Shown here: positions 7,896-42,789 of the stretch, one piece after another
How the letters are laid out: every line of letters begins with the position of its first letter
Numbering within the stretch: the first letter of the stretch is position 1
NCBI GenBank assembly: GCA_964599565.1
Contig: CAZRFE010000004.1
Coordinates: 3,680 to 67,679 of the forward strand
Source of the DNA: an uncultured Gammaproteobacteria bacterium
Lineage (GTDB): Bacteria > Pseudomonadota > Gammaproteobacteria > Natronospirales > JAJUFS01
Direction: 5' to 3'
DNA length: 64,000 bases
Notes under the pieces: model-generated
Seen by the model: only the letters and a program-made list of their open reading frames with translations
What the model was told of the DNA's origin: nothing
Databases searched by the model: none
Program-made: the position numbers and the translations under genes

Positions 7896-7907
7896 GCGAT
7901 CTCCGTT

Positions 7908-11003: not shown

Positions 11004-11055
11004 GCAATGCCTCGTTCGTTGTCCCGGCCGCGGAACGGCCTTTCCAGATCCGCGG

Positions 11056-12582: not shown

Positions 12583-12624
12583 GCATGTCCCTCTGTGCGA
12601 TTACTTCGGTGCGGCGGCGGCGGA

Positions 12625-13574: not shown

Positions 13575-14258
13575 ATGACCGCAACCACCTATCAGCACTG
13601 TTATCGCGTACTGCGCGTGGCTGCGGATTGCAGCCCCGAGGAACTGCGGCTTGCGTATCGCCGCCGCGTGAGAAGCTGCCATCCCGATCGCATGCGCGAT
13701 GACGCCACGCGCGACGATGAATTCAAGGAAGTCGTGAAGGCATACCGCACGCTCGTTGCGTTCCTTCGCCGTCACGGCGAGCTGCCGCCGCCGTGGCTCG
13801 TCATGGCATCGGATGCGGCGACAGCGAATCGCGCGATCGACCGGCGGCGCACGAAAGCGCGCGCTGACGCGCATGCCGTCCTCGACGATTCGCGCATGCG
13901 ATCCGCCGGACGGCTGACGCGTTTCTATGCGGCGGTTGCAGGCGCGTTCGTGCTCGGTGTCGGGACAAGCGCGCTGTTCGGCCAGGCCGGCGAACGTTAC
14001 GACACGGGTGCGGCGAGCAACGGCGGTCAGCTTGTCATCGGCATGGATCCGCAGTCCGTCGTCGAACTGCACGGCGTGCCGAACTACACGAAAGGCTCGG
14101 TCTGGTTCTATGGCGATTCCGGCGTGATCTTCGAGCGCGGCTGCGTGATCGGCTGGGAAGACCGCTCGCCGTTCCCGCTTCGCGCGCTCGTCAGCATGAC
14201 CTATCTCTCGCGCGGCGCGACATTCGAACGCGACGGCTGCACGCCGTCCGCCAACTGA
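13575..14258 (+). CDS. membrane-anchored J-domain (DnaJ-like) protein with a BamE/SmpA-like C-terminal domain
   Basis: 227 aa. YRVLRV...LAYRRRVRSCHPDR (HPD motif). One predicted TM (FYAAVAGAFVLGVGTSALF). C-terminal VIGMDPQSVVELHGVPNYTKGSVWFYGDSGVIFERGCVIGWED. Confidence 0.75.
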   Translation: MTATTYQHCYRVLRVAADCSPEELRLAYRRRVRSCHPDRMRDDATRDDEFKEVVKAYRTLVAFLRRHGELPPPWLVMASDAATANRAIDRRRTKARADAHAVLDDSRMRSAGRLTRFYAAVAGAFVLGVGTSALFGQAGERYDTGAASNGGQLVIGMDPQSVVELHGVPNYTKGSVWFYGDSGVIFERGCVIGWEDRSPFPLRALVSMTYLSRGATFERDGCTPSAN

Positions 14259-14265
14259 CACCCCG

Positions 14266-15693
14266 TCAGCGCGCACCTTTCCCGAACAGCACCACCTCGA
14301 CCGTCTGCAGCAGGATCGTCAGGTCGAACGCAAGGCTGTGGTTCTTGATGTAATACAGGTCGAACTTCAGCTTCTCCTGCGCATCGCGCGTCGATGCGCC
14401 GTAGGGATAGCAAAGCTGCGCCCAGCCGGTGATGCCCGGGCGCATCGCATGGCGCTGTTCATACCAGGGAATCTGGCGCGCAAGATCGCGCACGAACTCC
14501 GGGCGTTCCGGCCGCGGACCGACGAGACTCATCTCCCCGCGCAGCACGTTGAACAGCTGCGGCAGTTCATCGAGACGGGACTTTCGCAGGAAGCGGCCGA
14601 CGCGCGTGACGCGGTCATCGTTGCTTCGCGCCCAGCGCGCGACGCCATCGCTCTCCGCGTCTTCGCGCATGCTGCGGAATTTCACCAGGCGAAACTCCCG
14701 GCCGTGCTTGCCGACGCGCACCTGGCGGAAGAGCACCTTCGCATGCCAACCATCCTCGACCATGATCGCGATCGCGCACGCCAGCATCACCGGTGCGGCG
14801 GGCAGGAGCACGAGACCTGCAACGCACAGATCGAACATGTGCTTGAGGTAACGCTTGAGTCCGCCGTCCGCGAAACCGTTCCGATACAGCCACCAGCTCG
14901 CATCCACGAGTTCAAGCGGAATCCGCCCGCACTCGCGCTCCACGAACGTTGCCGCCTGCGTCACGCGCACGCCGCGAAACCGGCAGGCCAGGAGATCGTC
15001 CACCGGCAGGCTTTCCTCGCGTTCATTGCACGCAATGACGATCTCGTCCACGTTGCGGCGCTGGCACAGCGCACGAAGGCCGGTGCGGCTGTGAAGCAGG
15101 TGCGCAGGATGAATGCCGTTGTCCGTGCGCTCGCCGAGCGGCAGGTAACCGACGATCTCGATGCCGCGACGATCCGAGCGACGCCGAAGCGTGTCGTGAA
15201 AGCAGCGCGCCGCGCTGCCTGCGCCAAGCACGAGAACGTTCCTGCGCAGCGCGGCGCTGTCGATCAGCACGCTCACGATCAGCCGCCACACGAGAAGCAG
15301 CGCGAAACCGAACGCAACGCTCATGCCGAGATGCCCGAACGGTGCGGGCGACGGTGCAAGCGCGGTCAGCATCCACAGCAGCGCAAGCGCGGCAGCCGCG
15401 CTGCACAGGTATTTCATGAGAAGCTGGAAGATCGAACGGCGCGAACGGATCACGTGCATGCCGAGCGCGTGCATCACCGCGATCATCGCAAGCCCGAACA
15501 CCAGCGCGTCCAGCGCGATCCACGGCGACAGGCCAAGTGCGGGCGCGGCGATGGTTTCGCCTTCCTCGACGACCGGCGCCGTACCAAGCGCAAGATGCGC
15601 GGCGAGCGCGAATATCAGCAGCTCCCCGGCGGCGAGCCAGCGCAGCGGCGACCAATGGATGCCGCGCGGTGCGCTGTTCGATTCCATCAGCAT
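14266..15693 (-). CDS. polyprenyl-phosphate glycosyl-1-phosphate transferase (WbaP/EpsB-type priming sugar transferase)
   Basis: Multi-TM N-terminus, a central NAD-binding-like region, and a C-terminal bacterial sugar transferase domain (KFRSMREDAE...DDRVTRVGRFLRKSRLDELPQLFNVLRGEMSLVGPRP). The start among Mets 15693/15687/15801 is uncertain. Confidence 0.85.
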   Translation of the reverse strand: MLMESNSAPRGIHWSPLRWLAAGELLIFALAAHLALGTAPVVEEGETIAAPALGLSPWIALDALVFGLAMIAVMHALGMHVIRSRRSIFQLLMKYLCSAAAALALLWMLTALAPSPAPFGHLGMSVAFGFALLLVWRLIVSVLIDSAALRRNVLVLGAGSAARCFHDTLRRRSDRRGIEIVGYLPLGERTDNGIHPAHLLHSRTGLRALCQRRNVDEIVIACNEREESLPVDDLLACRFRGVRVTQAATFVERECGRIPLELVDASWWLYRNGFADGGLKRYLKHMFDLCVAGLVLLPAAPVMLACAIAIMVEDGWHAKVLFRQVRVGKHGREFRLVKFRSMREDAESDGVARWARSNDDRVTRVGRFLRKSRLDELPQLFNVLRGEMSLVGPRPERPEFVRDLARQIPWYEQRHAMRPGITGWAQLCYPYGASTRDAQEKLKFDLYYIKNHSLAFDLTILLQTVEVVLFGKGAR

Positions 15694-15954
15694 GAGATCC
15701 CCTTTCCCGTTCATTGCAGCGGCGAATGCCGTTGCGCAAGCGTCAAATCTATCGGCTCGCATTCCGCACCGGTATAAAGCGCGTGCATGAGGGGAAGGCA
15801 CTCACGCGCATCGGTGCGTCGCACATTGCGCAACTTAAAGTGTTTCGCGGAATGGAAGACACCGGCGCTCGGCATAGATTTCGGCTCATGCCTGCCCGGT
15901 TCGATGCGCGCATCGCCCGGCAGATTCCGTTTTACCTTGCAACGGAGCAGGAAC

Positions 15955-17310
15955 ATGTCCGGATCCGCTTCTTTCATCCAGGCCTCCATCGCACAACAGA
16001 ACCGCGCCGCCGTCGTACCGCTGCCGGCGGCGCTTCCCGATCTCGATACCGCGCACATCGGTGTGGTCGGACTCGGCTACGTCGGCCTGCCGCTCGCCGC
16101 TGCGTTCGGCCGGCGCTTTCCAACGACGGGTTATGACATCAACCCCGCGCGCATCATGGAACTGGAGGGCGGCATCGACCGCACGCGCGAGATCAGCGGC
16201 GAGGAACTTGCCGGCAGCGAGAAGCTCGGTTTCTCAACTGAGGTCGGCAAGCTCGCGGAATGCAATGTCTACATCGTTTCCGTGCCGACGCCGGTCGACC
16301 GTCACAAGCGTCCCGACCTTCGTCCGCTGGAAGCGGCGTCACGCACCGTCGGCAGCGTGCTGAAGCGCGGCGATGTGGTGGTGTACGAATCCACCGTGTA
16401 TCCCGGTGCAACCGAGGAAGTCTGCGTACCGGTGCTCGAGGAAGTTTCCGAGCTTGTCTTCAACCGCGATTTCTACGTCGGCTACAGCCCGGAGCGCATC
16501 AATCCCGGCGATCATGCGCATCGCGTCGAGGACATCGTGAAGGTGACGTCCGGTTCGACGCCGGATGCCGCCGAGTTCGTGGACCGTCTCTACCGCAGCG
16601 TCATTGCCGCGGGCACGCACCGCACCGAAACCATCCGCGAGGCGGAAGCCGCGAAGGTCATCGAGAACACGCAGCGCGATGTGAACATCGCGCTCGTCAA
16701 CGAACTTGCCACGCTGTTCAACCGTCTCGGCATCGACACCGCCAACGTGCTCGCCGCAGCCGGCAGCAAGTGGAACTTCCTGCCGTTCCGGCCCGGGCTT
16801 GTCGGCGGTCACTGCATCGGCGTCGATCCCTACTACCTCACGCACAAGGCGAAGGAAGTCGGCTTTCTCCCGGAAGTGATTCTCTCGGGACGAAGGATCA
16901 ACGACGAGATGGGCAGCTACATCGCAAACCGCGTCGTGAAGCTCATGACGCAGCGGCGCATCCATGTCGTCGGCGCGCGCATTCTCGTGCTCGGCCTCAC
17001 CTTCAAGGAGAACTGTCCGGACATCCGCAACACGCGCGTCACGGACATCATCGATGAGTTCCGCAACTACCACGCGGATGTCGATGTGCACGATCCCTGG
17101 GTGCATCCCGACGATGCGGCCCGCCTTGATGGCGTGAAGCTCGTCGAACGGCCGGATGCGAACGCCTATGACGCGGTGATTCTCGCCGTCGCGCACCGCG
17201 AATTCGCGGAACTCTCGCGCGATGCGCTGCTTTCGCTGTGCAAGCCGGAGCACGTCATCTACGACGTGAAGAACGCGCTGCCACGCGACGTCGTCACCGA
17301 GCGCCTGTAA
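15955..17310 (+). CDS. nucleotide-sugar 6-dehydrogenase (TviB/WbpO/CapL-like)
   Basis: ATG at 15955 preceded by [26 protein letters not shown] Rossmann fold, catalytic region [12 protein letters not shown], ~451 aa. Confidence 0.85.
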
Positions 17311-17326
17311 GGACGGGGAGGAAACC

Positions 17327-18400
17327 ATGCGTGTACTCGTAACCGGCACGGCCGGCTTCATCGGCTCCGCCGTCGCATTGCGCCTGCTTGCGCGCGGCGA
17401 CGAGGTGATCGGCATCGACAATCTCAACGATTACTACGATGTGCGCCTCAAGGAGTCGCGCCTCGAACGCGTGAAGGATCATGCCCGCTTCATCGACATC
17501 CGCGGCGACATCGCGGATCGCGACTGCGTGGACGCAGCATTTCGCCGCTACGCACCGCAGCGCGTGATCAACCTCGCCGCGCAGGCCGGTGTGCGCTATT
17601 CGCTCGAGAATCCGCGCGCGTACATCGAATCTAACATCGTCGGCTTCCAGAACATTCTCGAAGGCTGCCGGCACGGCGGCGTCGAGCACCTCGTGTACGC
17701 ATCCAGCAGTTCGGTGTACGGCGCGAACACCGCGATGCCCTTCTCCGTCAGCGACAACGTCGATCACCCGCTGAGCCTTTACGCTGCAACGAAGAAATCC
17801 AACGAGCTGATGGCGCATTGCTACAGCCATCTCTATGCGCTGCCGACGACGGGCCTGCGCTTCTTCACCGTCTACGGCCCCTGGGGGCGTCCCGACATGG
17901 CGCTGTTCCTGTTCACCGACCGCATCATGAAAGGCGAAGCCATTCCCGTCTTCAATGAAGGCCGGCACAGCCGCGACTTCACCTACATCGACGACATCGT
18001 CGAAGGCGTGGTCCGCACGCTGGATCGCGTGCCGGCGCCGGATGCCGCGTGGCGCGCGGATGAGCCAGACCCTGCGAGCAGTGCCGCGCCCTACCGCGTG
18101 TACAACATTGGCAGCAACAGTCCCGTGAAGCTGCTCGATTTCATCGACGTGCTGGAACGCAAGCTTGACCGGAAGGCGGAGAAGCATTTCCTGCCGATGC
18201 AGCCGGGCGACGTACCGGCGACATACGCGGACGTCGCGCAGCTTTTCGATGACGTCGGCTACCGGCCATCGACGCCGATCGATGTCGGTGTCGGAAAGTT
18301 CGTGGACTGGTACCGCGATTACTACCCGATGACGGACATGCGCAAACGGCCGGCATCGACAGCCGCCGCGATCCAGGCATCCGGCACGATGGGAGCATGA
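17327..18400 (+). CDS. NAD-dependent epimerase, UDP-glucuronate 4-epimerase-like
   Basis: [14 protein letters not shown]...[18 protein letters not shown]...YAATKKSNE (SDR YxxxK). About 25 aa C-terminal extension. Confidence 0.8.
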
Positions 18401-18401
18401 C

Positions 18402-19214
18402 ATGGCAACCGCCGCGCAGTTCATCGCCAGGACCGCACCGCGCCAGTTCCCGGAGCCGGATGTGGATGCGCAGTTCGAAACCGCACTCGCATGGCTGCTG
18501 CCCGCGCCCATCGCACACCATGGCGGGCGCATCGATCGCCTGCAGCTGCCGTTGCACGCCGCGGAGGAAATGTTCGTGCGAGACGCCGTCGAACGCCGGC
18601 GCATGGAATTCACCGCGGGCAGAACCTGCGCACGCGCCGTGCTTGAGCAGCACGGCATCGCGGAATGCACGCTCGGCATGGGCCCGCGCCGCGAGCCGCT
18701 GTGGCCGGATGGCGTCGTCGGCAGCATCTCGCACGCGGCGGGCTATTGCGTCGCTGCTGCCTGCACGCGCACCCGCATGACGGGAATCGGCATCGACATC
18801 GAAGCCGCAACGCCGCTCTCCGAAACGCTGTTCGATCTCGTCTGCACGCCGCATGAATCGGCCTGGTGCCAGAAACAGCCGGAACGGCTCGCGGGCCTGC
18901 TCGCGAAGTTCCTCTTCAGCGCGAAGGAATCGGTCTTCAAATGTCTTTATCCCGTCTTCCGCGAAGAGCTCGAGTTCGCGGACGTGACGGTGGACATCGA
19001 TCTTCATGCAGGACGTTTCATCGCGCATGCATCGCGCGTTGCGCTCGGCATCGATACGGACATCGAACTTCACGGGCGTCTTGCCTGTACATCGTTCCTC
19101 GTGATGACATCTGCCCTCCTGCCCTGCGCGGACATCGCGCAGCCCACGGCCGAACCGTACGAGTTCCAGCAGGACATCGGCCGCGCACGGCCGTTCCAGC
19201 ACTGCTGGCACTGA
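18402..19214 (+). CDS. 4'-phosphopantetheinyl transferase (EntD/Sfp type)
   Basis: EFTAGRTCARAVL...PLWPDGVVGSISHAAGY...GIGIDIE...FSAKESVFK motifs. The ATG starts 1 nt after the epimerase stop (TGAcATG). Confidence 0.8.
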   Translation: MATAAQFIARTAPRQFPEPDVDAQFETALAWLLPAPIAHHGGRIDRLQLPLHAAEEMFVRDAVERRRMEFTAGRTCARAVLEQHGIAECTLGMGPRREPLWPDGVVGSISHAAGYCVAAACTRTRMTGIGIDIEAATPLSETLFDLVCTPHESAWCQKQPERLAGLLAKFLFSAKESVFKCLYPVFREELEFADVTVDIDLHAGRFIAHASRVALGIDTDIELHGRLACTSFLVMTSALLPCADIAQPTAEPYEFQQDIGRARPFQHCWH

Positions 19215-19228
19215 GGGGTTGCATGCAT

Positions 19229-19262
19229 GAAAAAACGAGGCCTTTCGGCCTCGTTTTTTTTT
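19229..19262. terminator. bidirectional rho-independent terminator between convergent units
   Basis: AAAAAA-CGAGGCC-TTTC-GGCCTCG-TTTTTTTTTT. A perfect 7-bp stem with an A-tract on one side and a T-tract on the other. Confidence 0.75.
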
Positions 19263-19265
19263 GGA

Positions 19266-19580
19266 TCAACGAGAGGCGCGATGCCCGCCGCGGTTCTCCG
19301 CGGCGGCATCGTCTTCATCGTCGTCGGGCGCCAGTTCCTGCCACGTTGCGGGAAAGCGATGCGTGTCGCCCGCTTCGTAGAGAAACAGGTTCATTTCACG
19401 TGCTGCCTTGCGCCCCGATGACGCAAGGCCGGCGAGCGCATTGAACCAGAGAATTCTCTCCTGCCCTTTTGCAGGAACGTCGGCGGTCATTTCGAAGATG
19501 GAATCAAGTGTGCCGAAGGTGGCGTCAGAGGCGAGAAAGAGATTGAAATCGACGGATGCGTTTACGCTTTTTCTGCTCAT
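19266..19580 (-). CDS. hypothetical 104-aa protein with an acidic C-terminus, downstream of the NRPS genes
   Basis: ORF with a GC3-rich second half and a terminator immediately downstream. I recognise no motif. A 260-bp lower-GC spacer separates it from the NRPS stop. Confidence 0.45.
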   Translation of the reverse strand: MSRKSVNASVDFNLFLASDATFGTLDSIFEMTADVPAKGQERILWFNALAGLASSGRKAAREMNLFLYEAGDTHRFPATWQELAPDDDEDDAAAENRGGHRASR

Positions 19581-19840
19581 GGTGATTTCCTTGTTCTGCT
19601 GCTAAGCGTGACAAATGGATGCCGGGACGTTTAGCAGTCGGTAAGGAGACCCGATGGACTTATTCCCCGAAGGTGTTTTATTCGTCCACGCCCGGCAGAG
19701 ACCGATTTCCTTATCGAGGCTGCTACACCCCGCCTCATTCCTGAGGCGAGCGAAGTCTAGGAACTCCACTTCCGGCACAATATCGGGAAATCACGGAATT
19801 GGCATGAACAACGGCGCGGTCCATGCGCCGGAAGCGACCG

Positions 19841-22800
19841 CTATCCGCTCCTGCCGAGCAGCGCGTTCACCATGGTCCGCCACGACAAACCGCTGCTGCG
19901 CGGTTTTGCATCCGCCGCGACACTGCCCGCCTCCTCCACCTGGCGATCGCAGGTTGCGGCGATCTCGCCGAGCGAATTGAGCACGAGCAGTCGCGGCCGT
20001 ATGGTGCAGCCGAGCTCCGTTGCAATGCGCGCGACGACTTTCATCGAGGAGAGCGAGTGTCCGCCGAGGTCGAAGAAGTTGTCGTTGCGGCTGACGGTAT
20101 CGATGCCGAGGATGTCCTGCCAGATGGCGGCGATGCGCCGCTCGGTGTCCGTCTGCGGCGGGACGTGCGCGCTGCGCGGCGCGGCGGTGGGTGACGGCAA
20201 TGCGGCGCGGTTGATCTTGCCGCTCGCGGTGAGCGGCATGGCATCGAGCGCGACGAAGTGCTGCGGGATCATGTACGCGGGCAGCTGCGCGCGAAGATGC
20301 GATTTCAGTTCATCGATGCTCGCGCGCTTGCCGGCATGCAGCGTGAGGTACGCGATGAGCCGCTGGTCGTCGGCGGCGTCGAACGTGCGCACGATGACGA
20401 CGGCGCGCGCGACGGCAGGATGCGCTTCGAGCAGCGCTTCGATCTCGCCAGGCTCGATGCGGTGCCCGCGCAGCTTGATCTGGAAGTCGACGCGGCCGAG
20501 GTATTCGAGTGCGCCGTTCGCGTTGAACCGCACGCGGTCGCCGGTGCGGTAGAGCCGTGCATTCGCCTTGCCGCTGAACGGATCCGCAACGAAGCGTTCG
20601 CGCGTGAGATCCGCGCGGTTGAGATAGCCGAGCGTCACGCCATCGCCGCCGATGTAAAGCTCGCCGGGCACGCCGGGCGGTGTCGGCTGGCCGGACGCAT
20701 CGAGCACGTACACCTGCGTGTTCGCGATCGGGCGGCCGATCGGCACGGGATCGTCGTCGATGCCAAGGGCGTGCGCGGTGGACCACACCGTCGTTTCCGT
20801 CGGGCCGTAGAGGTTCCAGGCGTGTTCCGTGCACGCGATGAGTTCGCGCGCGAGCGGCGCCGGCAGTGCTTCGCCGCCGCTGATCGCGCACAGTTCCGCG
20901 TCGCCCTTCCAGCCGGCGGCGAGCAGCATCTGCCAGGTCGCGGGCGTGGCCTGCATGACGGTCGGCGGCTGGTGCGTGATCCATTCGCACAATGCCGTTC
21001 CGTCCTGCGCGATGTCGCGCGGCACGATGTCCGCATGCGCGCCGATGCAAAGCGGCAGCCACAGCTCGAGCACGGCAATGTCGAACGTGAGCGTGGTGAT
21101 CGCGAGGAAGCGGTCGTTCGAGGTGACGTCGAGCGTTGCCTGCATCGCGCGCAGGAAGTTCGCGACTGCACCGTGCGGCACGATCACGCCTTTCGGCTTG
21201 CCCGTCGATCCCGAGGTGTAGATCACGTACGCGGGATCGTCGGGCGTGTGCGTGATGTGGTTCGGCGAACGCGTCGTGACGCTCGCGTCGGCGGCCGGGT
21301 GCCGGGTCGCCGGCGCGGTCTCCCATTGCCCTTCGGCCGACCGGTCCTGCTGCCGCTCGCGCGACAGCAATGACGCGAGATCAACGGCGCGCCCGCCGAA
21401 GTCGGACAGCGCGTCGTGTTCCGTACCGCGCAGGTTCGTGATGACGGTGCCGGCGTTCGCATCGTCGAGCATCCACTGCAGGCGATCCACCGGTGCATCG
21501 GGATCGAGCGGCAGGTAGGCCGCACCGGCGCGCAGGACGCCGAGCAGTACCGCGGGCAGATCGATGTTTCGCGCAAGCAGCACGCCGACGATGTCGCCGC
21601 GTGCGACACCGCGCGCTGTAAGTGCCGCTGCCACTGCACCCGCCCGGCGTCCGAGCGCGCCGTAATCCATCTGCTCGCCCTGGCTTGAGATGGCAAGCGC
21701 GGAGGGCATCGCTGCAATCTGTTCATCGATCAGCGCATCCACCGTCGTTGCCGGCCAGTCATGTTCCGCACCGCGGGTCCATGCCGACAGCTGCTCGCCA
21801 TCGTGCGCGGACAGCAGCGGTAGCGTGCTGATCGGCTGCGTGGCGTCTTCCGTCACGGCGGCGAGCACGCGCTCGAAGGTCTTCAGCATGCGCGTTGCGG
21901 TGGAGGCCGCGAACAGGTCGGTGCTGTATTCCATGTCGATGTTCATGCCGTCATCGCTTTCGCGGCACCAGAAGGCGATATCCGTCTGCGCGGTGCTGCG
22001 CGGCGGCGTGAGCGGTTCGAACGCGAGGTTGCCGGCGACGAGGCTTTCCTCGGCATCCGGCACCAGTGTCACGAGCGCCTGGAAGATCGGCGTGCGCTGC
22101 GTGTCGCGCGGCGGCTGCACGGCATCGATCACGCGGCTGAACGGCAGCGACTGGTTGTCGAGCGCTTCAAGGCAACGGTCGCGCACCTGCCGGACGAGAT
22201 CGCTGAACGGCGCACTGCGCTCGATATGCATGCGCAGCGCGACGGGATTCATGAGCAGGCCGACGACGCCGTCGCGGTCTGCCTCGTCGCGGTTCGCCAT
22301 CGGCATGCCGAGCACGATCTCGTTCTGCCCGCCGAGGCCGGACAACGTGGCCGCGATGGTCGCCGTCAGCAGCATGAAGCCGGATGCGCGCATGTCGCGC
22401 GCCGCCGCTTCGAGCGTTGCGAGCGTCTCGCGCGGGATGTGCAGGCGAAGCACGTCGCCCTTCCCGCTCGGGAATTCGGGGCGCTCGAAATCCGCGGGAA
22501 GTTCAAGCACGGGCAGCGTGCCGGAGAGTCGGTTCTTCCAGTACGAAAGCTGTCTCTGCGCGGTGCGGCTTTCCAGCTGCTGCGCTTCCCGGCGCTGGAT
22601 GTCCGTGTACTGCGCATGCAGCGCCTGCAGCCTTGGCGCGCGCTGCTCGACGTGCGCGGCGTAGAGTTCCACGAGTTCGCGCTTCAGGATCGCCATCGAG
22701 GTGCCGTCCGCGATGATGTGATCGACGACGAACAGCAGCACATGATCGTCGGGCGCGAGCCGGAACAGCCGGCAGCGGTACAGCGGCGCGTGCATGGCGC

Positions 22801-23347
22801 CGAAGGGTTTTTCCAGCGCGGCTGCGAGCATCGCATGCAGCGCGTTTTCATCGCCGCCGGGAACGGTTTCCGGTTCAAGGTGCGTTTCGCCGACCGATGC
22901 GATGCGCTGCACGGGAGCGGCGTCATGCTCGACGATGACGGTGCGCAGCGCGGCATGGCGCTGCAGGAGATCGTGCAGTGCGGATTCCAGCGCGCGGACA
23001 TCGAGTGCGCCGTGCATGCGAAGCGTGATCTCAAGGTTGAACACGCCGCGCTCGGGCTGCTCGCTTTCGAGATACCACATGGATTGCTGCATCTCGGACA
23101 ACGCGTGCAGGCCGGCAGGCAGATCGCCGAACACCGGGGCTTCGGCGCCGGCGTCATCCAGCGTGGCGTCTTCGCGCAACGCTTCCAGTATCTCCTGCTT
23201 CTGTGCGCGCAGCTCCGCCTGGAGCGTTTCATCGATCACGCCGCGCGGCGCGGTGAGTACAAGACGGTCGTTCTGCTCGCGCAGGTCCACGCCGCGGCGG
23301 CGCAGTTCCCGGACCAGTTCGCGCGCGTTCATGTGCTGTCCGTTCAT
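19841..23347 (-). CDS. NRPS module (here NRPS3): N-terminal TubC-like docking domain - C - A(Gly-like) - T; no release domain
   Basis: 1168 aa. ELVRELRRRGVDLREQNDRLVLTAPRGVI (docking), VVDHIIADGTS (C3), YTSGSTGKPKG, NLYGPTE, GELYIGG, FFDLGGHSL. ATGA overlap with the upstream gene at 23344-23347. Confidence 0.95.
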   Translation of the reverse strand: MNGQHMNARELVRELRRRGVDLREQNDRLVLTAPRGVIDETLQAELRAQKQEILEALREDATLDDAGAEAPVFGDLPAGLHALSEMQQSMWYLESEQPERGVFNLEITLRMHGALDVRALESALHDLLQRHAALRTVIVEHDAAPVQRIASVGETHLEPETVPGGDENALHAMLAAALEKPFGAMHAPLYRCRLFRLAPDDHVLLFVVDHIIADGTSMAILKRELVELYAAHVEQRAPRLQALHAQYTDIQRREAQQLESRTAQRQLSYWKNRLSGTLPVLELPADFERPEFPSGKGDVLRLHIPRETLATLEAAARDMRASGFMLLTATIAATLSGLGGQNEIVLGMPMANRDEADRDGVVGLLMNPVALRMHIERSAPFSDLVRQVRDRCLEALDNQSLPFSRVIDAVQPPRDTQRTPIFQALVTLVPDAEESLVAGNLAFEPLTPPRSTAQTDIAFWCRESDDGMNIDMEYSTDLFAASTATRMLKTFERVLAAVTEDATQPISTLPLLSAHDGEQLSAWTRGAEHDWPATTVDALIDEQIAAMPSALAISSQGEQMDYGALGRRAGAVAAALTARGVARGDIVGVLLARNIDLPAVLLGVLRAGAAYLPLDPDAPVDRLQWMLDDANAGTVITNLRGTEHDALSDFGGRAVDLASLLSRERQQDRSAEGQWETAPATRHPAADASVTTRSPNHITHTPDDPAYVIYTSGSTGKPKGVIVPHGAVANFLRAMQATLDVTSNDRFLAITTLTFDIAVLELWLPLCIGAHADIVPRDIAQDGTALCEWITHQPPTVMQATPATWQMLLAAGWKGDAELCAISGGEALPAPLARELIACTEHAWNLYGPTETTVWSTAHALGIDDDPVPIGRPIANTQVYVLDASGQPTPPGVPGELYIGGDGVTLGYLNRADLTRERFVADPFSGKANARLYRTGDRVRFNANGALEYLGRVDFQIKLRGHRIEPGEIEALLEAHPAVARAVVIVRTFDAADDQRLIAYLTLHAGKRASIDELKSHLRAQLPAYMIPQHFVALDAMPLTASGKINRAALPSPTAAPRSAHVPPQTDTERRIAAIWQDILGIDTVSRNDNFFDLGGHSLSSMKVVARIATELGCTIRPRLLVLNSLGEIAATCDRQVEEAGSVAADAKPRSSGLSWRTMVNALLGRSG
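20052..21835. repeat. direct repeat copy 1 (1784 bp, apparently 100% identical to 23501..25284)
   Basis: All six-frame ORFs in this span recur identically at an offset of +3449 (e.g. 20258..21373 = 23707..24822; 20310..21326 = 23759..24775). Boundaries were read directly from the sequence. Confidence 0.92.
23168..23335 (-). other. NRPS3 N-terminal TubC_N-type (beta-hairpin) docking domain, approximate
   Basis: ARELVRELRRRGVDLREQNDRLVLTAPRGVIDETLQAELRAQKQEILEAL matches the L..L...GV.L....D.L...AP.G.L...L...K..L pattern. Confidence 0.6.
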
Positions 23348-26300
23348 AGCTCGACGATCTCCTGCATGTCATGGTTGCCGGCGATGCGCGCATCGACATC
23401 TTCCGCGAGATCGATCAGCGCCGGTGTTTCGAAGAGGGTCGCGATGGGCAGCGCGCAGCCGAGCTGCTCGCGCAGCACGGTCACGAAGCGCGCGGCGAGC
23501 AGCGAGTGTCCGCCGAGGTCGAAGAAGTTGTCGTTGCGGCTGACGGTATCGATGCCGAGGATGTCCTGCCAGATGGCGGCGATGCGCCGCTCGGTGTCCG
23601 TCTGCGGCGGGACGTGCGCGCTGCGCGGCGCGGCGGTGGGTGACGGCAATGCGGCGCGGTTGATCTTGCCGCTCGCGGTGAGCGGCATGGCATCGAGCGC
23701 GACGAAGTGCTGCGGGATCATGTACGCGGGCAGCTGCGCGCGAAGATGCGATTTCAGTTCATCGATGCTCGCGCGCTTGCCGGCATGCAGCGTGAGGTAC
23801 GCGATGAGCCGCTGGTCGTCGGCGGCGTCGAACGTGCGCACGATGACGACGGCGCGCGCGACGGCAGGATGCGCTTCGAGCAGCGCTTCGATCTCGCCAG
23901 GCTCGATGCGGTGCCCGCGCAGCTTGATCTGGAAGTCGACGCGGCCGAGGTATTCGAGTGCGCCGTTCGCGTTGAACCGCACGCGGTCGCCGGTGCGGTA
24001 GAGCCGTGCATTCGCCTTGCCGCTGAACGGATCCGCAACGAAGCGTTCGCGCGTGAGATCCGCGCGGTTGAGATAGCCGAGCGTCACGCCATCGCCGCCG
24101 ATGTAAAGCTCGCCGGGCACGCCGGGCGGTGTCGGCTGGCCGGACGCATCGAGCACGTACACCTGCGTGTTCGCGATCGGGCGGCCGATCGGCACGGGAT
24201 CGTCGTCGATGCCAAGGGCGTGCGCGGTGGACCACACCGTCGTTTCCGTCGGGCCGTAGAGGTTCCAGGCGTGTTCCGTGCACGCGATGAGTTCGCGCGC
24301 GAGCGGCGCCGGCAGTGCTTCGCCGCCGCTGATCGCGCACAGTTCCGCGTCGCCCTTCCAGCCGGCGGCGAGCAGCATCTGCCAGGTCGCGGGCGTGGCC
24401 TGCATGACGGTCGGCGGCTGGTGCGTGATCCATTCGCACAATGCCGTTCCGTCCTGCGCGATGTCGCGCGGCACGATGTCCGCATGCGCGCCGATGCAAA
24501 GCGGCAGCCACAGCTCGAGCACGGCAATGTCGAACGTGAGCGTGGTGATCGCGAGGAAGCGGTCGTTCGAGGTGACGTCGAGCGTTGCCTGCATCGCGCG
24601 CAGGAAGTTCGCGACTGCACCGTGCGGCACGATCACGCCTTTCGGCTTGCCCGTCGATCCCGAGGTGTAGATCACGTACGCGGGATCGTCGGGCGTGTGC
24701 GTGATGTGGTTCGGCGAACGCGTCGTGACGCTCGCGTCGGCGGCCGGGTGCCGGGTCGCCGGCGCGGTCTCCCATTGCCCTTCGGCCGACCGGTCCTGCT
24801 GCCGCTCGCGCGACAGCAATGACGCGAGATCAACGGCGCGCCCGCCGAAGTCGGACAGCGCGTCGTGTTCCGTACCGCGCAGGTTCGTGATGACGGTGCC
24901 GGCGTTCGCATCGTCGAGCATCCACTGCAGGCGATCCACCGGTGCATCGGGATCGAGCGGCAGGTAGGCCGCACCGGCGCGCAGGACGCCGAGCAGTACC
25001 GCGGGCAGATCGATGTTTCGCGCAAGCAGCACGCCGACGATGTCGCCGCGTGCGACACCGCGCGCTGTAAGTGCCGCTGCCACTGCACCCGCCCGGCGTC
25101 CGAGCGCGCCGTAATCCATCTGCTCGCCCTGGCTTGAGATGGCAAGCGCGGAGGGCATCGCTGCAATCTGTTCATCGATCAGCGCATCCACCGTCGTTGC
25201 CGGCCAGTCATGTTCCGCACCGCGGGTCCATGCCGACAGCTGCTCGCCATCGTGCGCGGACAGCAGCGGTAGCGTGCTGATCGGTGCGTCGTTTCCTGCA
25301 AGGCGCGCCATGAACTGTTCGAGTTCGCGAAACCGCCGCTGCATGCCTTGCGGCGTGAACAGGCTCGCGTCGTACGTGCATTCGAAGAGCACGCCGTCCT
25401 TGCCATCGACGGCATTGATGAACATCTCGAAGTTCTCGAACCGGCGCGGCGTGTTCTCGATGCGCGCGCGCAGGCCATGGAACCCGGGCACGTCATTGCG
25501 GTGATCGATGTTGAGAATCACCTGCACGAGCGGCACGATCGCGGGATCGCGCGGCACGCGCAGCGCATGCACGATGCGTCCCATCGAGCAGTCGCGGTGC
25601 TCCCATGCATCCGACATCGTTTCGCCGATGTGATCGAGATGCGCATCGAAACCTGCATCCGGCGCAAGCCGGCTGCGCAACGGAAGCAGGCTGACGCAAT
25701 GGCCGACGAGACCTTCGAGACCCTCCTCGACCTGCCCTGCCGCCGGCACGCCGAGAATGAGATCGTCCTGCCCTGTCAGCCGGTGCAGGTAGGCGGCGAC
25801 GGCCGCGGCGATCACGGTGAAACCTGTCACGCCGCGCTTCATGCCGCGCGCACGAAGCTTCTGCATGACTTCCGCGGGAATGCGATGGCGAAGATAGTGC
25901 GCGGGAAATGCGCGACGGCCGGGACGCGGGAAATCCTTCGGCAGTTCGAGATTCGATGGCGCATCGGCGAGCGCGCGCTGCCACGCAGCTTCCTGGTCGC
26001 GGCGCGTATCCGCATCCACCTCCGCCTGGCGCTCCGCATACGCCGCGAACGATGGCGCGGGTTCCGAATCGTCCGCTTCACCGCGCACCGCGGCGCTGTA
26101 GAGCTGCGCGAGTTCATCGAACAGCACGCTGAACGACCAGCCATCGCAGACGGTGTGATGCGCGGTGAGCAGCACGGCATGGCTGTAGTCGTCGATGTGA
26201 ACGATGCGGCAGCGAAACAGCGGACCGTTGATGAGGTCGAACGGCGCGGTCACCTCATGCGCGCGCAATGCATCCAGCGTCGTGTCGCTGTGGCGAAGAT

Positions 26301-26628
26301 CCACGGGCGTGACATCAAGCGCGATCTCGCGCGCGATGCACAGCGCCTGCCCGTCCGGGCCGAATGTCGCGCGCAGCGCGTCGTGCCGCTGTGCAAGCCT
26401 GGATAGCGCGTGCGCCATGGCGCCGATATCGAGATGGCCGTGCAGTTCAAGGCAGCGGGATTCGTTGTACGCGCACGATGCCTCGGGGCTGAGCGATGCG
26501 GCCGCCCAGATCTCCCGCTGCGGTTCCGTGGCGGGCACGCTCGCCAGCAGGTCGGCGGCGAACGGGTTGAAGTCGACGGGCGCCGACTCCTTATATATAT
26601 GTTCAAGACTCCTGTCGGCAGGATTCAT
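23344..26628 (-). CDS. NRPS module (here NRPS2): C - A(Gly-like) - T
   Basis: 1094 aa. The N-terminus VDFNPFA...VPATEPQREIW is a C-domain type seen after PKS/aminotransferase modules. AHHTVCDGWS (C3). A-T identical to NRPS3. RBS GAGGGAG upstream of ATG 26628. Confidence 0.95.
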   Translation of the reverse strand: MNPADRSLEHIYKESAPVDFNPFAADLLASVPATEPQREIWAAASLSPEASCAYNESRCLELHGHLDIGAMAHALSRLAQRHDALRATFGPDGQALCIAREIALDVTPVDLRHSDTTLDALRAHEVTAPFDLINGPLFRCRIVHIDDYSHAVLLTAHHTVCDGWSFSVLFDELAQLYSAAVRGEADDSEPAPSFAAYAERQAEVDADTRRDQEAAWQRALADAPSNLELPKDFPRPGRRAFPAHYLRHRIPAEVMQKLRARGMKRGVTGFTVIAAAVAAYLHRLTGQDDLILGVPAAGQVEEGLEGLVGHCVSLLPLRSRLAPDAGFDAHLDHIGETMSDAWEHRDCSMGRIVHALRVPRDPAIVPLVQVILNIDHRNDVPGFHGLRARIENTPRRFENFEMFINAVDGKDGVLFECTYDASLFTPQGMQRRFRELEQFMARLAGNDAPISTLPLLSAHDGEQLSAWTRGAEHDWPATTVDALIDEQIAAMPSALAISSQGEQMDYGALGRRAGAVAAALTARGVARGDIVGVLLARNIDLPAVLLGVLRAGAAYLPLDPDAPVDRLQWMLDDANAGTVITNLRGTEHDALSDFGGRAVDLASLLSRERQQDRSAEGQWETAPATRHPAADASVTTRSPNHITHTPDDPAYVIYTSGSTGKPKGVIVPHGAVANFLRAMQATLDVTSNDRFLAITTLTFDIAVLELWLPLCIGAHADIVPRDIAQDGTALCEWITHQPPTVMQATPATWQMLLAAGWKGDAELCAISGGEALPAPLARELIACTEHAWNLYGPTETTVWSTAHALGIDDDPVPIGRPIANTQVYVLDASGQPTPPGVPGELYIGGDGVTLGYLNRADLTRERFVADPFSGKANARLYRTGDRVRFNANGALEYLGRVDFQIKLRGHRIEPGEIEALLEAHPAVARAVVIVRTFDAADDQRLIAYLTLHAGKRASIDELKSHLRAQLPAYMIPQHFVALDAMPLTASGKINRAALPSPTAAPRSAHVPPQTDTERRIAAIWQDILGIDTVSRNDNFFDLGGHSLLAARFVTVLREQLGCALPIATLFETPALIDLAEDVDARIAGNHDMQEIVEL
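23501..25284. repeat. direct repeat copy 2 (1784 bp)
   Basis: See copy 1. Encodes PISTLPLL...FFDLGGHS, the complete A domain plus the T domain up to the Ppant serine, in both NRPS genes. Confidence 0.92.
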
Positions 26629-26639
26629 TGTGTTCTCCC

Positions 26640-29600
26640 TCAGTTTGCGCGGCTTTCGCCGACGCCAAGCTCCCGGTAGCGGCCCGGACGATCAGGATCC
26701 GGCACGAACCAGCCGGGTTGCCCGTCGGGCCGCCGGCCAAGGCGCGCACCCGGCGCAGGCGGCGCGCCCATCGTGGCGCCCGCCGGTGTTCTCGCCTTCG
26801 CGGGCTTCTCTTGCGCAACCGCCTGCGCTGCATCCGGAAAGAAACCGGCCGCGTGCATCTCGGCGAGCGCTTCCTGGAATACCTTGCTCACCTGCGCGAG
26901 ATCCGCATCGCTGTGCGCGGTGGTCAGGAAACACGGCTCGCCTTCGATCACGTGAACGCCGCCCGCGCGAAGCCTGGCTTCGAGAAGCCCGCGGCACGGC
27001 AGGCGCGCATCGACATCGATGAAGAACCATGACGAGAAACTGCGGATATCGACGGGCGCGTTGACGGCCTTCGCGTGCTGTTCCAGCTCGCATGCAAGTC
27101 TCGCGGTGCGCTCGTTCAACGTGCGCTGCAGCGACGGGCCGGATTCGCGAAGCTGCGCGAGCGTTGCTTCCGCCGCGGCGAGCGCGAGCGAATGCTGCGA
27201 GCCTGATGACGCATCGGCGCTGCACATCGCGTTCGCATCGCCCGCGAGCACGCCGAGCGGCATGCCACCGCCGACGGTCGCGCCATAGCATGAAAGATCC
27301 GCGCGCGTCCCGCAGATGCCGGGCGCGCCCGCGGGATGGACACGAAAGCCGCAGGCGATTTCATCGAACACCAGCAACGCGCCGCATTCGCGCGTTGCCG
27401 CGCGCAGCGCGGCGATGAAATCCGGCGCATAGCGTTCCGGGTGCAGGCTCTGCACGGGCTCGACGAGAACGGCCGCGAGCGTTTCGCGAAGTTCACGAAC
27501 GCGTTGCAGGGCGCGTTCGCTGCCGTAATCGAGAACCTCGATGCCGTCATCCGCTTCCCCATGCCCCCAAATGCGCGCGGACTCATCCGCAAACGTCACA
27601 ACCTTTCGCCGCTGCGTGACCGTGCGGGCGGCGTCGATCGCCGCGTGCAGCGCTTCCGTTCCGGTGGCATGGAAACTGACACGCTCGAAACCGGTCAGCG
27701 CCTGCACGAGGCGCGCAACGCGTCCGGCCAGCGGTGTCTGCAGCCCCGCCTCCGCGCCGCGCTTCATCTGCTGTCGCACAGCGTCGTTGATTGCGGGATT
27801 CGCATGACCGAGCAGGATCGCGCCGTGCGCGTTGACGAGGTCGATGTATCCGTTGCCGTCGATGTCCTGGATTCTCGAACCGGACGAGGATTCGATGACG
27901 ATCGGGTAGGCAATATCCGCGAGCATTGCATCGCCCGGTGCAGGCGCAATGCCGGCGAGATGCGCACGATGCGTGCGCGCAAACGCGCGCGAGCCGGATG
28001 TCCGCCAGGCATGGCGCCGGACGACATCGCGCACGTAATCCTTTCCTGCCGCGGAAAGTTCCTGTGCAGGCGCGCTGCGTGCATCCGTGACGGCACGCGG
28101 GGTGCTTGCAGATGCGTTCCGTGAAATTTCCTCATCCAGCAGCGCCGCGATCGCCGCGAGCGTGTTGTGTTCCACGAGCAGCTGCCGGAAGCGAAGATCA
28201 AGCCCGAAGCGCTTCTTCAGCGCCTGGCTGAACTGCGTCAGGAACAGCGAATCGAGCCCGAGCTGCGCAAACGGCACGGCGTGCATGGCAGGTCCGGTCT
28301 CGAGCCCGGAGACATCCGCAAGGAGTTCACCGAGTTGCTCGATCATCGGGCGTTCATCGACGCGCGCAACCTGCGGCGCGCTTTGCGGGCTGGCAGGTCC
28401 TGGTGATGCATCCGTTCGTGATGCCGCGGTGAGGGGAACGTCGCTCGCCGGCCGGCTGTCGAGCCAGTGGCGCGTGCGTTCGAACCGGTACGTGGGCGCG
28501 GGAACGCGACGCCGCGCGTTGTCATGCAGCGCCGTCCAGTCGATGGAAACGCCGTTCGTCCAGAGTCGTCCCGCGGCATCGAGCATCGCCACGCGCTCGT
28601 CGCTTCCTTCACGGTGCCTGCCGAGCGACGCGATGACCTGTACATCCGCGTCATCCGCGAAGGTCTGCGCGGCAAATGTCGACGCCGCCGTTCCAGGACC
28701 GCACTCGACGAATACAACATGTTCGCGGGATTCGCCCCGCGCCGACTGCAGCGCCTGCATGAAGCGCACGGGCTCGCGCAACTGGCGCGACCAGTACGCG
28801 GGATCCGTCGCCTGCGCCGCATCGAGCGGCGCACCGGTGACGGTCGAGACGATGTCGATGGCGGGCGGTGAAAGCGCGAGCTTGCCGACCGTTGTCTCGA
28901 ACGCCGCTGCAACGGGATCCATCATCGCGGAATGAAACGCGTGCGAGGTGCGCAGCGTGCTGCATGCCAAGCCGGCCTTCTCGAGACGCGACTTCGTGCG
29001 TGCGATCGCGGCATCGTCTCCCGACAGCACGCAGAAGCCCGGCGCATTCAGCGCCGCGATGGCAACGTCATCCGCAAGATGTTCGCGAACCGCGTCTTCC
29101 GCGGCGCGCACCGAAAGCATGGAGCCCGGCGGCTGCTCCTGCATCAGGCGTGCGCGTTCCGCGACCAGGCGTACGGCATCCTCGATACGGAATATTCCCG
29201 CGAGCGTTGCGGCGACGAACTCGCCGATGCTGTGGCCGACGAGCGCATCCGGCCTGACGCCGCGCTGCATCCACAGCCTTGCGATCGCATACTCGGCTGC
29301 GAACAGCGCGGGCTGCGTGTAGCGGGTTTCATCCAGCAGTTCCGTTGCGTTGTCCGTGCTGCCGAACATGATCTCGCGCAGGTCGAAATCGAGATCGTCC
29401 GCGAGCGCATCCGCGCAGCGATCGATGATGTCGCGTACCAGCGGTTCGGCGCGATAAAGCGGCTCGCACATGCCGGGACGCTGCGAACCCTGCCCGGGAA
29501 ACAGGAACACCACCCGAGGCCGTTCCTTTGCATTGCCCGTTCGCATGCGCGCGCCGCTGTTCCCTTTCAGGAGCGCTGCGGCTTCCGCGCGCGAACCCGC

Positions 29601-31106
29601 GGCGACGGCGAGGCGTTTCGCAAACGCCTGGCGGCCGCGCTGCAGTGTCCAGGCGATGTCCTGGAACGAATGCACCGGTTTTGTCTCAAGGAATTCCGCG
29701 AGCGCGGTACGCGCCCGCTCGAGCGCCGCGTCCGTCTTCGCAGAAAGCACGATGAGTTGCGGCTGCCCGCCCTCTTCGCGCTTCGCAACCGGCGGCGGCG
29801 CCTCGAGTACGACGTGCGCGTTGGTTCCGCCGAGCCCGAACGAACTCACGCCCGCGAACCGCGGCGCATCCGCCGGCCACTCGCGCACGCGGTCGATGAC
29901 GTGGAACGGACTTTCCGCGAGATGAAGCTCGGGGTTGGGTGATGTGAAATGCAGCGTGGCGGGAATTCTTCCCTCGCGAAGCGCAAGCGTGGCCTTGATG
30001 AGTCCCGCAATGCCGGACGCCGCATCCAGGTGTCCGATGTTTCCTTTCACGGAACCGATGCCGCAGTAGCCGCGGCGATTCGTGTGCGTACGGAATGCGC
30101 GCGTGAGTGCTGCGATCTCGACGGGATCGCCGAGCGACGTGCCGGTACCGTGCGCTTCGATGTAACCGATGTCGCCGGCATCGACGCCCGCGACTTCCTG
30201 CGCCATCTGCACGACTTCCGCCTGGCCCTGCACGCCGGGCGCGGTGAAGCTCACCTTGCCCGCGCCGTCGTTGTTCATCGCCGCGCCGCGTATCACGGCG
30301 TGAATGGTGTCGTTGTCCGCGAGCGCGTCGGAGAGCCGCTTGAGCACGACGACGCCGCCGCCGCTGCTGAACACCGTGCCTTTTGCGCCGGCATCGAACG
30401 GCCGGCAGCGGCCATCGGGCGAATGGATGCTGCCTTCCTGGTAAAGGTATCCGCGCTGCGGCGGACAGATGACGGACACGCCGCCGGCGAGCGCGATATC
30501 GCACTGGTAATCCAGCAGGCTGTTGAATGCATGGCAGACCGCGACCAGCGAGGTGGAACACGCGGTACTGACCGTGACGCAGGGACCGCGCAGGTCGAGC
30601 TTGTAGGCGACGCGTGTGGCGAGATAGTCCTTCTCGTTTGCGACCATCGCGGGAATCTCGCCGAAGCTCGCAAGCAGCGCCGGGTGCTGCGCCACGTGCG
30701 CGGCGAAATAGGTGTTGTAGCTCATGCCCGCGAACACGCCCGTCAGTGCATCGTGCGTGCCCGCGGCGTAGCCTGCGTCTTCGAGCGCGCGCCAGCACAT
30801 CTCGAGAAACGTGCGCTGCTGCGGGTCGAGCATTTCGGCTTCGCGCGGTGCGATGCCGAAGAATTCCGCATCGAAGCGGTCGGCTTCCGGCATCAGTCCG
30901 CGCACGCGCACGTAGTCGCGCTGCGTACGCAGCGATTGCGGCACGGAAGGATCGAGGTCCGCGTCCGCGAAACGGTCAAGCGTTTCGCGTCCTTCCAGCA
31001 GGTTCTGCCAGTACGTATCGATATCCGCCGCACCGGGAAACCTGCCGTCCATGCCGATGATGGCGATGGCTTCGGAGTCGCGCGCGTTGTCCTGGTCTGC
31101 TTGCAT
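26640..31106 (-). CDS. type I PKS module: KS - AT(malonyl-type) - ACP - class-III aminotransferase-like domain
   Basis: The track ORF is over-extended to 31412. The real start is ATG 31106 (MQADQDNARDSEAIAIIGMDGRFPGA), 2 nt after the NRPS1 stop. KS: TACSTS, EAHGTGT, KGNIGH. AT: GHSIGE, HAFHS. ACP: LGLDSL. AMT: DEIACGFR, GGGMPLG. Confidence 0.92.
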   Translation of the reverse strand: MQADQDNARDSEAIAIIGMDGRFPGAADIDTYWQNLLEGRETLDRFADADLDPSVPQSLRTQRDYVRVRGLMPEADRFDAEFFGIAPREAEMLDPQQRTFLEMCWRALEDAGYAAGTHDALTGVFAGMSYNTYFAAHVAQHPALLASFGEIPAMVANEKDYLATRVAYKLDLRGPCVTVSTACSTSLVAVCHAFNSLLDYQCDIALAGGVSVICPPQRGYLYQEGSIHSPDGRCRPFDAGAKGTVFSSGGGVVVLKRLSDALADNDTIHAVIRGAAMNNDGAGKVSFTAPGVQGQAEVVQMAQEVAGVDAGDIGYIEAHGTGTSLGDPVEIAALTRAFRTHTNRRGYCGIGSVKGNIGHLDAASGIAGLIKATLALREGRIPATLHFTSPNPELHLAESPFHVIDRVREWPADAPRFAGVSSFGLGGTNAHVVLEAPPPVAKREEGGQPQLIVLSAKTDAALERARTALAEFLETKPVHSFQDIAWTLQRGRQAFAKRLAVAAGSRAEAAALLKGNSGARMRTGNAKERPRVVFLFPGQGSQRPGMCEPLYRAEPLVRDIIDRCADALADDLDFDLREIMFGSTDNATELLDETRYTQPALFAAEYAIARLWMQRGVRPDALVGHSIGEFVAATLAGIFRIEDAVRLVAERARLMQEQPPGSMLSVRAAEDAVREHLADDVAIAALNAPGFCVLSGDDAAIARTKSRLEKAGLACSTLRTSHAFHSAMMDPVAAAFETTVGKLALSPPAIDIVSTVTGAPLDAAQATDPAYWSRQLREPVRFMQALQSARGESREHVVFVECGPGTAASTFAAQTFADDADVQVIASLGRHREGSDERVAMLDAAGRLWTNGVSIDWTALHDNARRRVPAPTYRFERTRHWLDSRPASDVPLTAASRTDASPGPASPQSAPQVARVDERPMIEQLGELLADVSGLETGPAMHAVPFAQLGLDSLFLTQFSQALKKRFGLDLRFRQLLVEHNTLAAIAALLDEEISRNASASTPRAVTDARSAPAQELSAAGKDYVRDVVRRHAWRTSGSRAFARTHRAHLAGIAPAPGDAMLADIAYPIVIESSSGSRIQDIDGNGYIDLVNAHGAILLGHANPAINDAVRQQMKRGAEAGLQTPLAGRVARLVQALTGFERVSFHATGTEALHAAIDAARTVTQRRKVVTFADESARIWGHGEADDGIEVLDYGSERALQRVRELRETLAAVLVEPVQSLHPERYAPDFIAALRAATRECGALLVFDEIACGFRVHPAGAPGICGTRADLSCYGATVGGGMPLGVLAGDANAMCSADASSGSQHSLALAAAEATLAQLRESGPSLQRTLNERTARLACELEQHAKAVNAPVDIRSFSSWFFIDVDARLPCRGLLEARLRAGGVHVIEGEPCFLTTAHSDADLAQVSKVFQEALAEMHAAGFFPDAAQAVAQEKPAKARTPAGATMGAPPAPGARLGRRPDGQPGWFVPDPDRPGRYRELGVGESRAN
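26832..27929 (-). other. class-III (GSA/HemL-like) aminotransferase domain with Ala at the Schiff-base Lys position (approximate)
   Basis: DIDGNGYIDL..., VFDEIACGFR, DLSCYGATVGGGMPLG. The GCG codon at 27279-27281 sits where HemL-type enzymes have the PLP lysine (DLTCLGKIIGGGMPVG). Confidence 0.7.
28137..28349 (-). other. PKS ACP domain (approximate)
   Basis: FAQLGLDSLFLTQF, with the Ppant Ser at about aa 953. Confidence 0.8.
28617..29513 (-). other. PKS acyltransferase domain, malonyl-CoA-type motifs (approximate)
   Basis: FLFPGQGSQ, LVGHSIGEF, SHAFHS. Confidence 0.8.
29802..31073 (-). other. PKS ketosynthase domain (approximate)
   Basis: Cys-His-His triad motifs are present (VSTACSTSLVAV, EAHGTGTSLGDP, SVKGNIGHLDAASG). 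Confidence 0.85.
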
Positions 31107-31108
31107 GT

Positions 31109-42780: not shown

Positions 42781-42789
42781 ATTGCACCG

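Follow-up and report, generated by a model that had tools for sequence, protein, structure and literature searches.

A perfect 1784-bp repeat in two adjacent glycine modules probably records very recent recombination within a nonribosomal peptide synthetase cluster

Introduction

How do two neighbouring genes for nonribosomal peptide synthetases (NRPSs), with condensation domains only about a quarter identical, come to share 1784 bp without a single difference? The question is raised by a 64,000-nucleotide stretch of DNA from an uncultured gammaproteobacterium (contig CAZRFE010000004.1 of assembly GCA_964599565.1), here called the window and numbered from its first letter. Two single-module synthetase genes, gene A and gene B, lie side by side on its minus strand, and each encodes a module of condensation (C), adenylation (A) and thiolation (T) domains. 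An original prediction, made by reading the letters alone, described an identical A-T unit swapped into both modules and offered very recent gene conversion or module duplication as its source. We consider it highly probable that the repeat is the trace of a very recent, non-reciprocal recombination within the genome, in which the unit of gene B was written over that of gene A, as part of the concerted evolution of an exchange unit.

Results

Positions 20052-21835 and 23501-25284 are the same base for base (1784 of 1784 nucleotides, 0 mismatches) at an offset of 3449 bp, as the original prediction had it. A comparison of the window with itself and an exact alignment of the copies returned this pair with no mismatch, and an independent repeat search of the window recovered it as well, with no third copy; the only other related stretch in that search was a 69-nt match to the A3 motif, 83% identical, in the upstream NRPS (35604-35672). 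An exact match of 1784 bp within 64 kb cannot have arisen by chance. Both junctions are abrupt. The match cannot be extended by even 1 base on either side, identity outside the repeat at the same offset is 21-38% in 100-nt bins, which is the random level, and there is no microhomology outside the junctions. The G+C content of the block (0.685) and that of its third codon positions (GC3, 0.85) are in line with the flanks.

With both genes on the minus strand, the block is read from 21835 to 20052 in gene A and from 25284 to 23501 in gene B. In each gene its first base opens a codon (phase 0), that of P505 in gene A and that of P449 in gene B (PISTLPLL), and its last base is the second one of the Leu codon that follows the phosphopantetheine (Ppant) attachment Ser, GGHS-L (S1098 in A, S1042 in B). 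The protein boundaries that had been predicted, from the C-A linker to two bases past the Ser codon, are thus exact. The copies are 100% identical at all three codon positions, and convergence at the protein level was rejected as the cause of the identity because the synonymous sites are identical too.

Gene A (19841-23347) encodes 1168 aa, in which Pfam places a TubC_N docking domain (residues 10-59), a Condensation domain (82-520), a Gly-specific AMP-binding domain (541-909) and a PP-binding domain (1071-1131); it is the final synthetase gene of the set and has no thioesterase (TE) domain. Gene B (23344-26628) encodes 1094 aa with Condensation (31-464), Gly-specific AMP-binding (485-853), AMP-binding_C and PP-binding (1015-1076) domains and a conserved C-terminal tail, ...QEIVEL. 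Both genes lie above the Pfam curated cut-offs (Condensation, E 1e-86 and 2e-68; AMP-binding, E 3e-83; AMP-binding_C; PP-binding), and the start of gene A overlaps the stop of gene B by ATGA. The acidic tail of gene B (23347-23400; ...EVFEI or ...ELFEL in orthologues) and the TubC_N-type docking head of gene A (23171-23320) look like a matched docking pair, which would fix the order B then A.

The copy in gene A covers residues 505-1099, with the Ppant site FFDLGGHS at residues 1091-1098 (1035-1042 in gene B). We placed the edges on an AlphaFold model of gene A, for which the window protein and ten homologues were used and the mean predicted local distance difference test (pLDDT) score was 78.8. 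In the model, the last helix of the C domain spans residues 481-500 (pLDDT ~90), and helices alpha1 and alpha2 of the T domain span residues 1067-1080 and 1099-1112; the block starts 4 residues past the former and ends at the first residue of alpha2. The exchanged block is therefore modelled as the C-A linker, an entire A domain and the T domain's first half (alpha1, loop 1 and GGHS). Outside it lie the docking and C domains of gene A (21836-23347), the C domain of gene B (25285-26628), and the second halves of the two T domains from helix alpha2 onward: SSMK... with a 5-aa insertion, a conserved tail and the stop in gene A (19841-20053), and LLAAR... with the tail and stop in gene B (23344-23502). 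The C-domain motif of gene B is HHTVCDG. That of gene A is DHIIADG, in which the first His is replaced and the second, putatively catalytic His is kept, and DHxxxDG is invariant in its orthologues.

Both modules had been predicted to load glycine, and the specificity code of the A domains agrees. The code, of the DILQLGLIWK type that marks Gly-activating A domains, is DILQIGLVWK in the window and DILQLG(L/V/M)(I/V)WK in the orthologues, with the positions mapped by hand from the core motifs using GrsA numbering; DILQ(L/I)G(L/V/M)(I/V)WK holds for all 16 A domains in eight genomes with two modules each. The best solved relatives of the A domain in the block are LgrA module 2 and AB3403, both glycine-loading modules.

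We searched for related clusters in genome and metagenome collections and found no identical, near-identical or close relative of the window in those scanned. Neither protein has an exact match on record (assembly index). The closest proteins, 53-62% identical, come from uncultured Gammaproteobacteria, and none more than 62% identical was present among 5.8 billion searched. Genome contigs scanned with the head of gene A alone gave no relative; an alignment-based genome scan gave only two metagenome-assembled genomes from the known relatives, together with distant NRPSs; and a metagenome scan gave one further gene A orthologue, L016, which starts at a contig edge, has no gene B and was left out of the paralogue comparison.

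Seven related contigs (L001-L005, L020 and L021) were compared, making eight genomes with the window. All seven hold an adjacent B-A pair. Two of them, L020 and L021, are short, and the contig end of L021 truncates gene B. Six of the seven have a convergent phosphopantetheinyl transferase (PPTase) gene after gene A. In the five contigs that reach far enough (L001-L005), the order is first NRPS, a polyketide synthase (PKS) with ketosynthase, acyltransferase, acyl carrier protein and aminotransferase domains (KS-AT-ACP-AMT), gene B, gene A. L021 and L022 hold only the last 442 residues of gene B and were used in part. Both are independent public short-read contigs from a related cluster, and both start in the A domain of gene B at the A3 motif (TSGSTGKPKG), a position consistent with assemblies breaking at sequence common to both modules.

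The comparison of orthologous clusters, one glycine module against two, gave two modules at every locus. Within each relative the paralogous A and B blocks are 57-70% identical in amino acids and 61-74% in nucleotides, with third codon positions at 42-62%, so the unit shared in the window is not a newcomer swapped in, as first described; both modules already had paralogous Gly A-T units, one of which overwrote the other. These loci also bear on the idea that a whole Gly module was recently duplicated to create the second. On the surface, a tandem duplication is what the two neighbouring C-A-T modules suggest, since they share a substrate and their A-T segment is identical. The flanking C domains, which had been called unrelated, are in fact homologous, but they are only about 27% identical in amino acids between A and B; the second halves of the T domains are 10-27% identical; a docking domain is present in gene A and absent from gene B; and A and B have separate orthologues in seven other clusters, falling into two clades with 100% bootstrap support. 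With position-specific C domains and T second halves in both modules of all seven relatives, the orthologue comparison refutes a module duplication, to which we give next to no probability: both modules are old.

The second half of the T domain shows how strictly position is kept outside the block. All B orthologues read GGHSL-LAAR... and end in (E/Q)E(V/L/I)(F/V)E(I/L), and A orthologues read GGHSL-SSM(K/E)...RPRLLVLN...W(K/R)xV(M/V)xxL(L/F)G, with gene A of L020 as an exception; the 5-residue insertion IRPRL and the tail W(K/R)xV(M/V)xxL(L/F)G(R/K) are found in the T domain of gene A in eight of eight genomes. The T domain of the L020 gene A (3398-6793) has GGHSLLSMK in place of GGHSLSSM, with a residue of the B type one codon beyond the edge seen in the others, which suggests that the conversion tract in L020 ended one codon further downstream.

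The block and its surroundings have opposite histories. In the C-domain tree, A is split from B with 100% bootstrap, the B orthologues form a clade of their own, and each clade repeats the same genome tree; in the N-terminal parts, identity is 0.43-0.69 at the same position and 0.09-0.28 across positions. The block tree joins A with B inside {L001, L002, L005} (100%), inside {L003, L004} (90%) and in the window (100%). Four-point tests agree with the trees. For the block, the lineage split was the smallest in 95-100% of bootstraps for 11 of 11 between-lineage genome pairs, L020 included; for the C domain the position split won by a wide margin, and it was also favoured for genome pairs within one lineage. 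Trees and sliding windows place orthologues closer by position in the C domains and in the second halves of the T domains, contrary to what is seen in the block. The position signal in the sliding windows is strong up to alignment column ~515 and again from ~1135, with none between except in one insertion region, and these limits coincide with the edges of the perfect repeat in the window. From these comparisons we conclude that homogenisation of the same block occurred on at least four separate occasions: one in each of two ancestral lineages, one in L020 and one in the window. That in the window is by far the youngest.

The insertion region points to the direction of transfer. A 35-residue insertion between motifs A2 and A3 (RERQQDRSAEGQWETAPATRHPAADASVTTRSPNH) is present in six of six B orthologues that cover the region and absent or different in seven of seven A orthologues. 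In the window block it is present in both copies, at 24706-24810 in gene B and, copied, at 21257-21361 in gene A, where it forms a predicted disordered loop (pLDDT <50 for residues 666-693). Among nine diagnostic columns in the window block, six have the B state and one the A state. Given the B-type insertion and this balance of columns, gene B (23501-25284) is the probable donor and gene A (20052-21835), whose copy contains an insertion that A orthologues lack, the probable recipient.

Alternatively, a foreign Gly A-T cassette could have been acquired horizontally and inserted into both modules, and sharp edges with no flanking microhomology are what illegitimate insertion would be expected to leave. 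We regard this as very unlikely. In amino acids the block is 58-67% identical to the A-T blocks of the family, which is about as near as those blocks stand to one another between lineages; it has the B-type insertion that is specific to the family, and its G+C and GC3 match the flanks. The database search likewise held no closer protein, and an external donor was rejected on the absence of any protein more than 62% identical.

An assembly or polishing artefact would require that the real copies differ clearly (e.g. <95% identity) and that one sequence was printed twice. An exact repeat of 1784 bp forms a loop, R-X-R, in an assembly graph, from which both R copies are taken from the same node, and the breaks of L021 and L022 inside the A domain of gene B indicate that the region troubles short-read assemblers. 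This explanation nevertheless seems unlikely to us: both junctions are precise, in frame, and placed where the homology of the paralogues begins and ends in seven other genomes; reads must bridge from unique flank into the block, which demands that the copies truly agree, at each of the four junctions, over no less than one k-mer or read length; and copies as diverged as in the relatives (61-74% in nucleotides) share almost no long k-mers and would not merge. An artefact of this kind may hide a few single-nucleotide polymorphisms, raising near-identity to identity; the finding itself cannot be created in this way.

Recombination between the copies would remove 3449 bp and leave an intact fused open reading frame (ORF) of 1112 aa with no stop, made of the C domain of B, the block and the T-domain tail of A. 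The original prediction of an in-frame deletion holds for the fused ORF, although 3449 is not divisible by 3: the reading frame survives the fusion only because genes A and B lie in different frames, overlapping by ATGA, and the block is in phase 0 in each. The reciprocal product would be an additional gene of 1150 aa, also intact, with the docking and C domains of A, the block and the T-domain tail of B.

These products could be read as the purpose of the repeat, with identity maintained by selection so that recombination switches the number of Gly modules between one, two or more and varies product length in the population. The deletion product is an intact ORF, and the expansion product keeps a matching docking head and tail as well. 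We hold such a maintained recombination substrate to be quite improbable: exactly two modules are present at eight of eight loci, the copies in the other seven genomes have diverged to 57-70% amino acid identity, which shows that identity is not generally kept, and beyond plain homology nothing was searched for or found. No one-module or three-module form occurs among the eight loci, although no search was aimed at one-module variants with gene B. Variation in product length by way of the repeat is a possibility only. If the reading were true, it would mean that chain length (one, two or three Gly) is polymorphic, in a heritable and reversible way, in an uncharacterised product encoded next to an exopolysaccharide locus. 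For practical work, the repeat can break or mislead assemblies and cluster annotation, and it makes the locus prone to deletion or duplication of 3449 bp during cloning.

The genes upstream of gene B complete the synthetase set. The PKS, KS-AT-ACP-aminotransferase in Pfam, spans 26640-31412 on the minus strand, with a probable true start near 31109 (MQADQDN...) judged from the sequence. The first NRPS (31109-37438, minus strand; 2109 aa) has the order C-A-T-C-like-C-like-T in Pfam searches of the whole protein and of pieces. Its three condensation-like domains lack the canonical HHxxxDG, with RRALLDW, HRLAVDA and HQALVDG at the aligned positions, and the last C-like domain precedes a T domain without any A domain. 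Pfam showed neither a thioesterase nor a reductase release domain in the NRPS/PKS set (19841-37438, minus strand). Immediately upstream of the first NRPS, at 37776-44087 on the minus strand, signalling genes encode a LuxR-type response regulator, a PAS-GGDEF-EAL protein, a histidine kinase with RsbU_N, a SpoIIE-type phosphatase and an RsbR-like STAS protein, which together look like a stressosome-type module.

On the other side, an Sfp-type PPTase (18402-19214, plus strand; Pfam 4PPT_N and ACPS) is convergent with gene A, a place that is kept in six of the seven related loci. The gap between the PPTase and the end of gene A (19215-19840, 626 bp) has a G+C content of 56% against 65% for the window and holds no gene that passes a coding-bias screen; the gap is 7-409 bp in the relatives, and Rfam gave no match in the window, 19215-19840 included. 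Beyond the PPTase, a large exopolysaccharide gene set at 1277-18400 adjoins the synthetases. It comprises GT4 glycosyltransferases, an asparagine synthase-like amidotransferase, a GT2 glycosyltransferase, a deacetylase, a BBP2_2 porin, an ATPase and a Wzz-like protein, followed by Poly_export, a DnaJ-domain protein, Bac_transf, a UDP-glucose dehydrogenase and an epimerase. The stretch from the PPTase to the BBP2_2 porin has the same order in L001-L003, and L021 has its first genes too. What follows gene A in L004 is, instead, a giant toxin-like protein. The peptide-polyketide and the polysaccharide may be functionally linked.

Discussion

What survives of the original prediction is a very recent gene conversion at natural points of recombination; the trees, the sliding windows, the four-point tests and published boundaries support it. 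The participants would be two long-standing paralogous Gly-loading units in adjacent single-module NRPS genes, and the unit at 23501-25284 would have overwritten the one at 20052-21835, either by non-reciprocal homologous recombination (gene conversion) or by a cycle of duplication and deletion through unequal exchange, presumably with a RecA-type mechanism. The edges of the tract would then be the limits of homology between the two modules, limits that function would hold in place: the C domains and the T second halves that face the downstream partner would have to remain position-specific, while the Gly-activating part would be interchangeable because both modules load glycine. For the same reason, the conversion should leave the product unchanged.

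Several points weigh against this reading. A single conversion between copies that are ~65-74% identical in nucleotides would be inefficient and should leave unconverted fringes, and none were seen. An assembler that resolves a loop emits both copies from one node, and the true identity may be somewhat below 100%. The trees are neighbour-joining trees from simple distances, with eight genomes only. In the older lineages the insertion region keeps its position signal, and since the insertion difference was not erased there, the earlier events are partial or mosaic and unlike the event in the window in extent. The missing fringes are also the reason why we think repeated homogenisation in the window lineage more likely than a single conversion. 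That lineage may have remained in a cycle of repeated homogenisation, a "trapped" state, from which the other lineages would have escaped by divergence.

Recombination between NRPS modules of one genome is regarded as a main evolutionary process (Baunach et al. 2021, PMC8097286), and concerted evolution of NRPS and PKS domains, with A domains that branch by cluster and not by position, was described by Medema et al. (2014, PMC4256081). In the model of the latter, modules are trapped in a cycle of divergence and internal recombination and escape through divergence. That work was at the level of domain trees from big multimodular synthetases; in the window, by contrast, the tract edges are resolved to the base, a donor is identified, and the escaped state (in the relatives) and the trapped state (in the window) are visible side by side. 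The closest parallel is the repeat between cif-A4Leu and cif-A7Leu of the cichofactin cluster (1251 bp, 99.4% identity, Sanger-verified, continuing into the T domain at 95%), reported by Gotze et al. (2019, PMC7472662), who found very sharp identity edges in Pseudomonas lipopeptide synthetases and, in three related clusters, exchanges between this pair of modules that had occurred in parallel. Both are long, near-identical intracluster repeats with sharp edges over A domains of the same specificity. The window differs in its identity of 100% over 1784 bp and in the size of the unit, which is larger, starting at the C-A linker rather than in the first A-domain helices and ending at the T-domain Ser rather than in mid-Asub; its modules also sit in separate adjacent genes joined by a putative docking pair.

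Each edge of the unit has a published counterpart. Calcott et al. (2020, PMC7486941) found that transfer of an A domain together with its own linker is permissive when the cut falls right at the C domain's end, and they placed a hotspot of natural breakpoints between C and A; the window block likewise starts 4 residues past the last C-domain helix. Their downstream boundary lies after the A domain and their cases change the substrate, whereas that of the window lies inside the T domain and the exchange is Gly to Gly. Bozhuyuk et al. (10.1101/2022.12.02.518901) described a sharp change of history within FFxxGGxS, with the T domain's first half belonging to the A domain and its second half to the C domain downstream. 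The window block matches this breakpoint, ending two bases past the Ser codon of FFDLGGHS and leaving strictly position-specific second halves. The XUT, a unit that extends from one T domain to the next (Tp2-C-A-Tp1), takes in a C domain, whereas the window unit is linker-A-Tp1 and the C domains were not exchanged. The downstream edge thus resembles that of an XUT, but the unit as a whole is not one. Baunach et al. (2021, PMC8097286) reported that swaps in nature for the most part retain the native linker and Asub; unlike such Acore swaps, linker, Acore, Asub and the first T half move together in the window, as a larger unit. The unit therefore combines the upstream edge of Calcott et al. with the downstream edge of Bozhuyuk et al.

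Both edges coincide with boundaries that were found permissive in engineering, the end of the C domain and FFxxGGxS of the T domain. The locus lends support to present thinking on the points at which NRPS modules can be cut, and it adds one more data point for evolution-guided design. It is no new kind of system; it is a clean new example of a known process, NRPS concerted evolution, in an uncharacterised cluster family, and its value lies in boundaries at the level of the base and in homogenised and escaped states of the same two modules that can be seen side by side.

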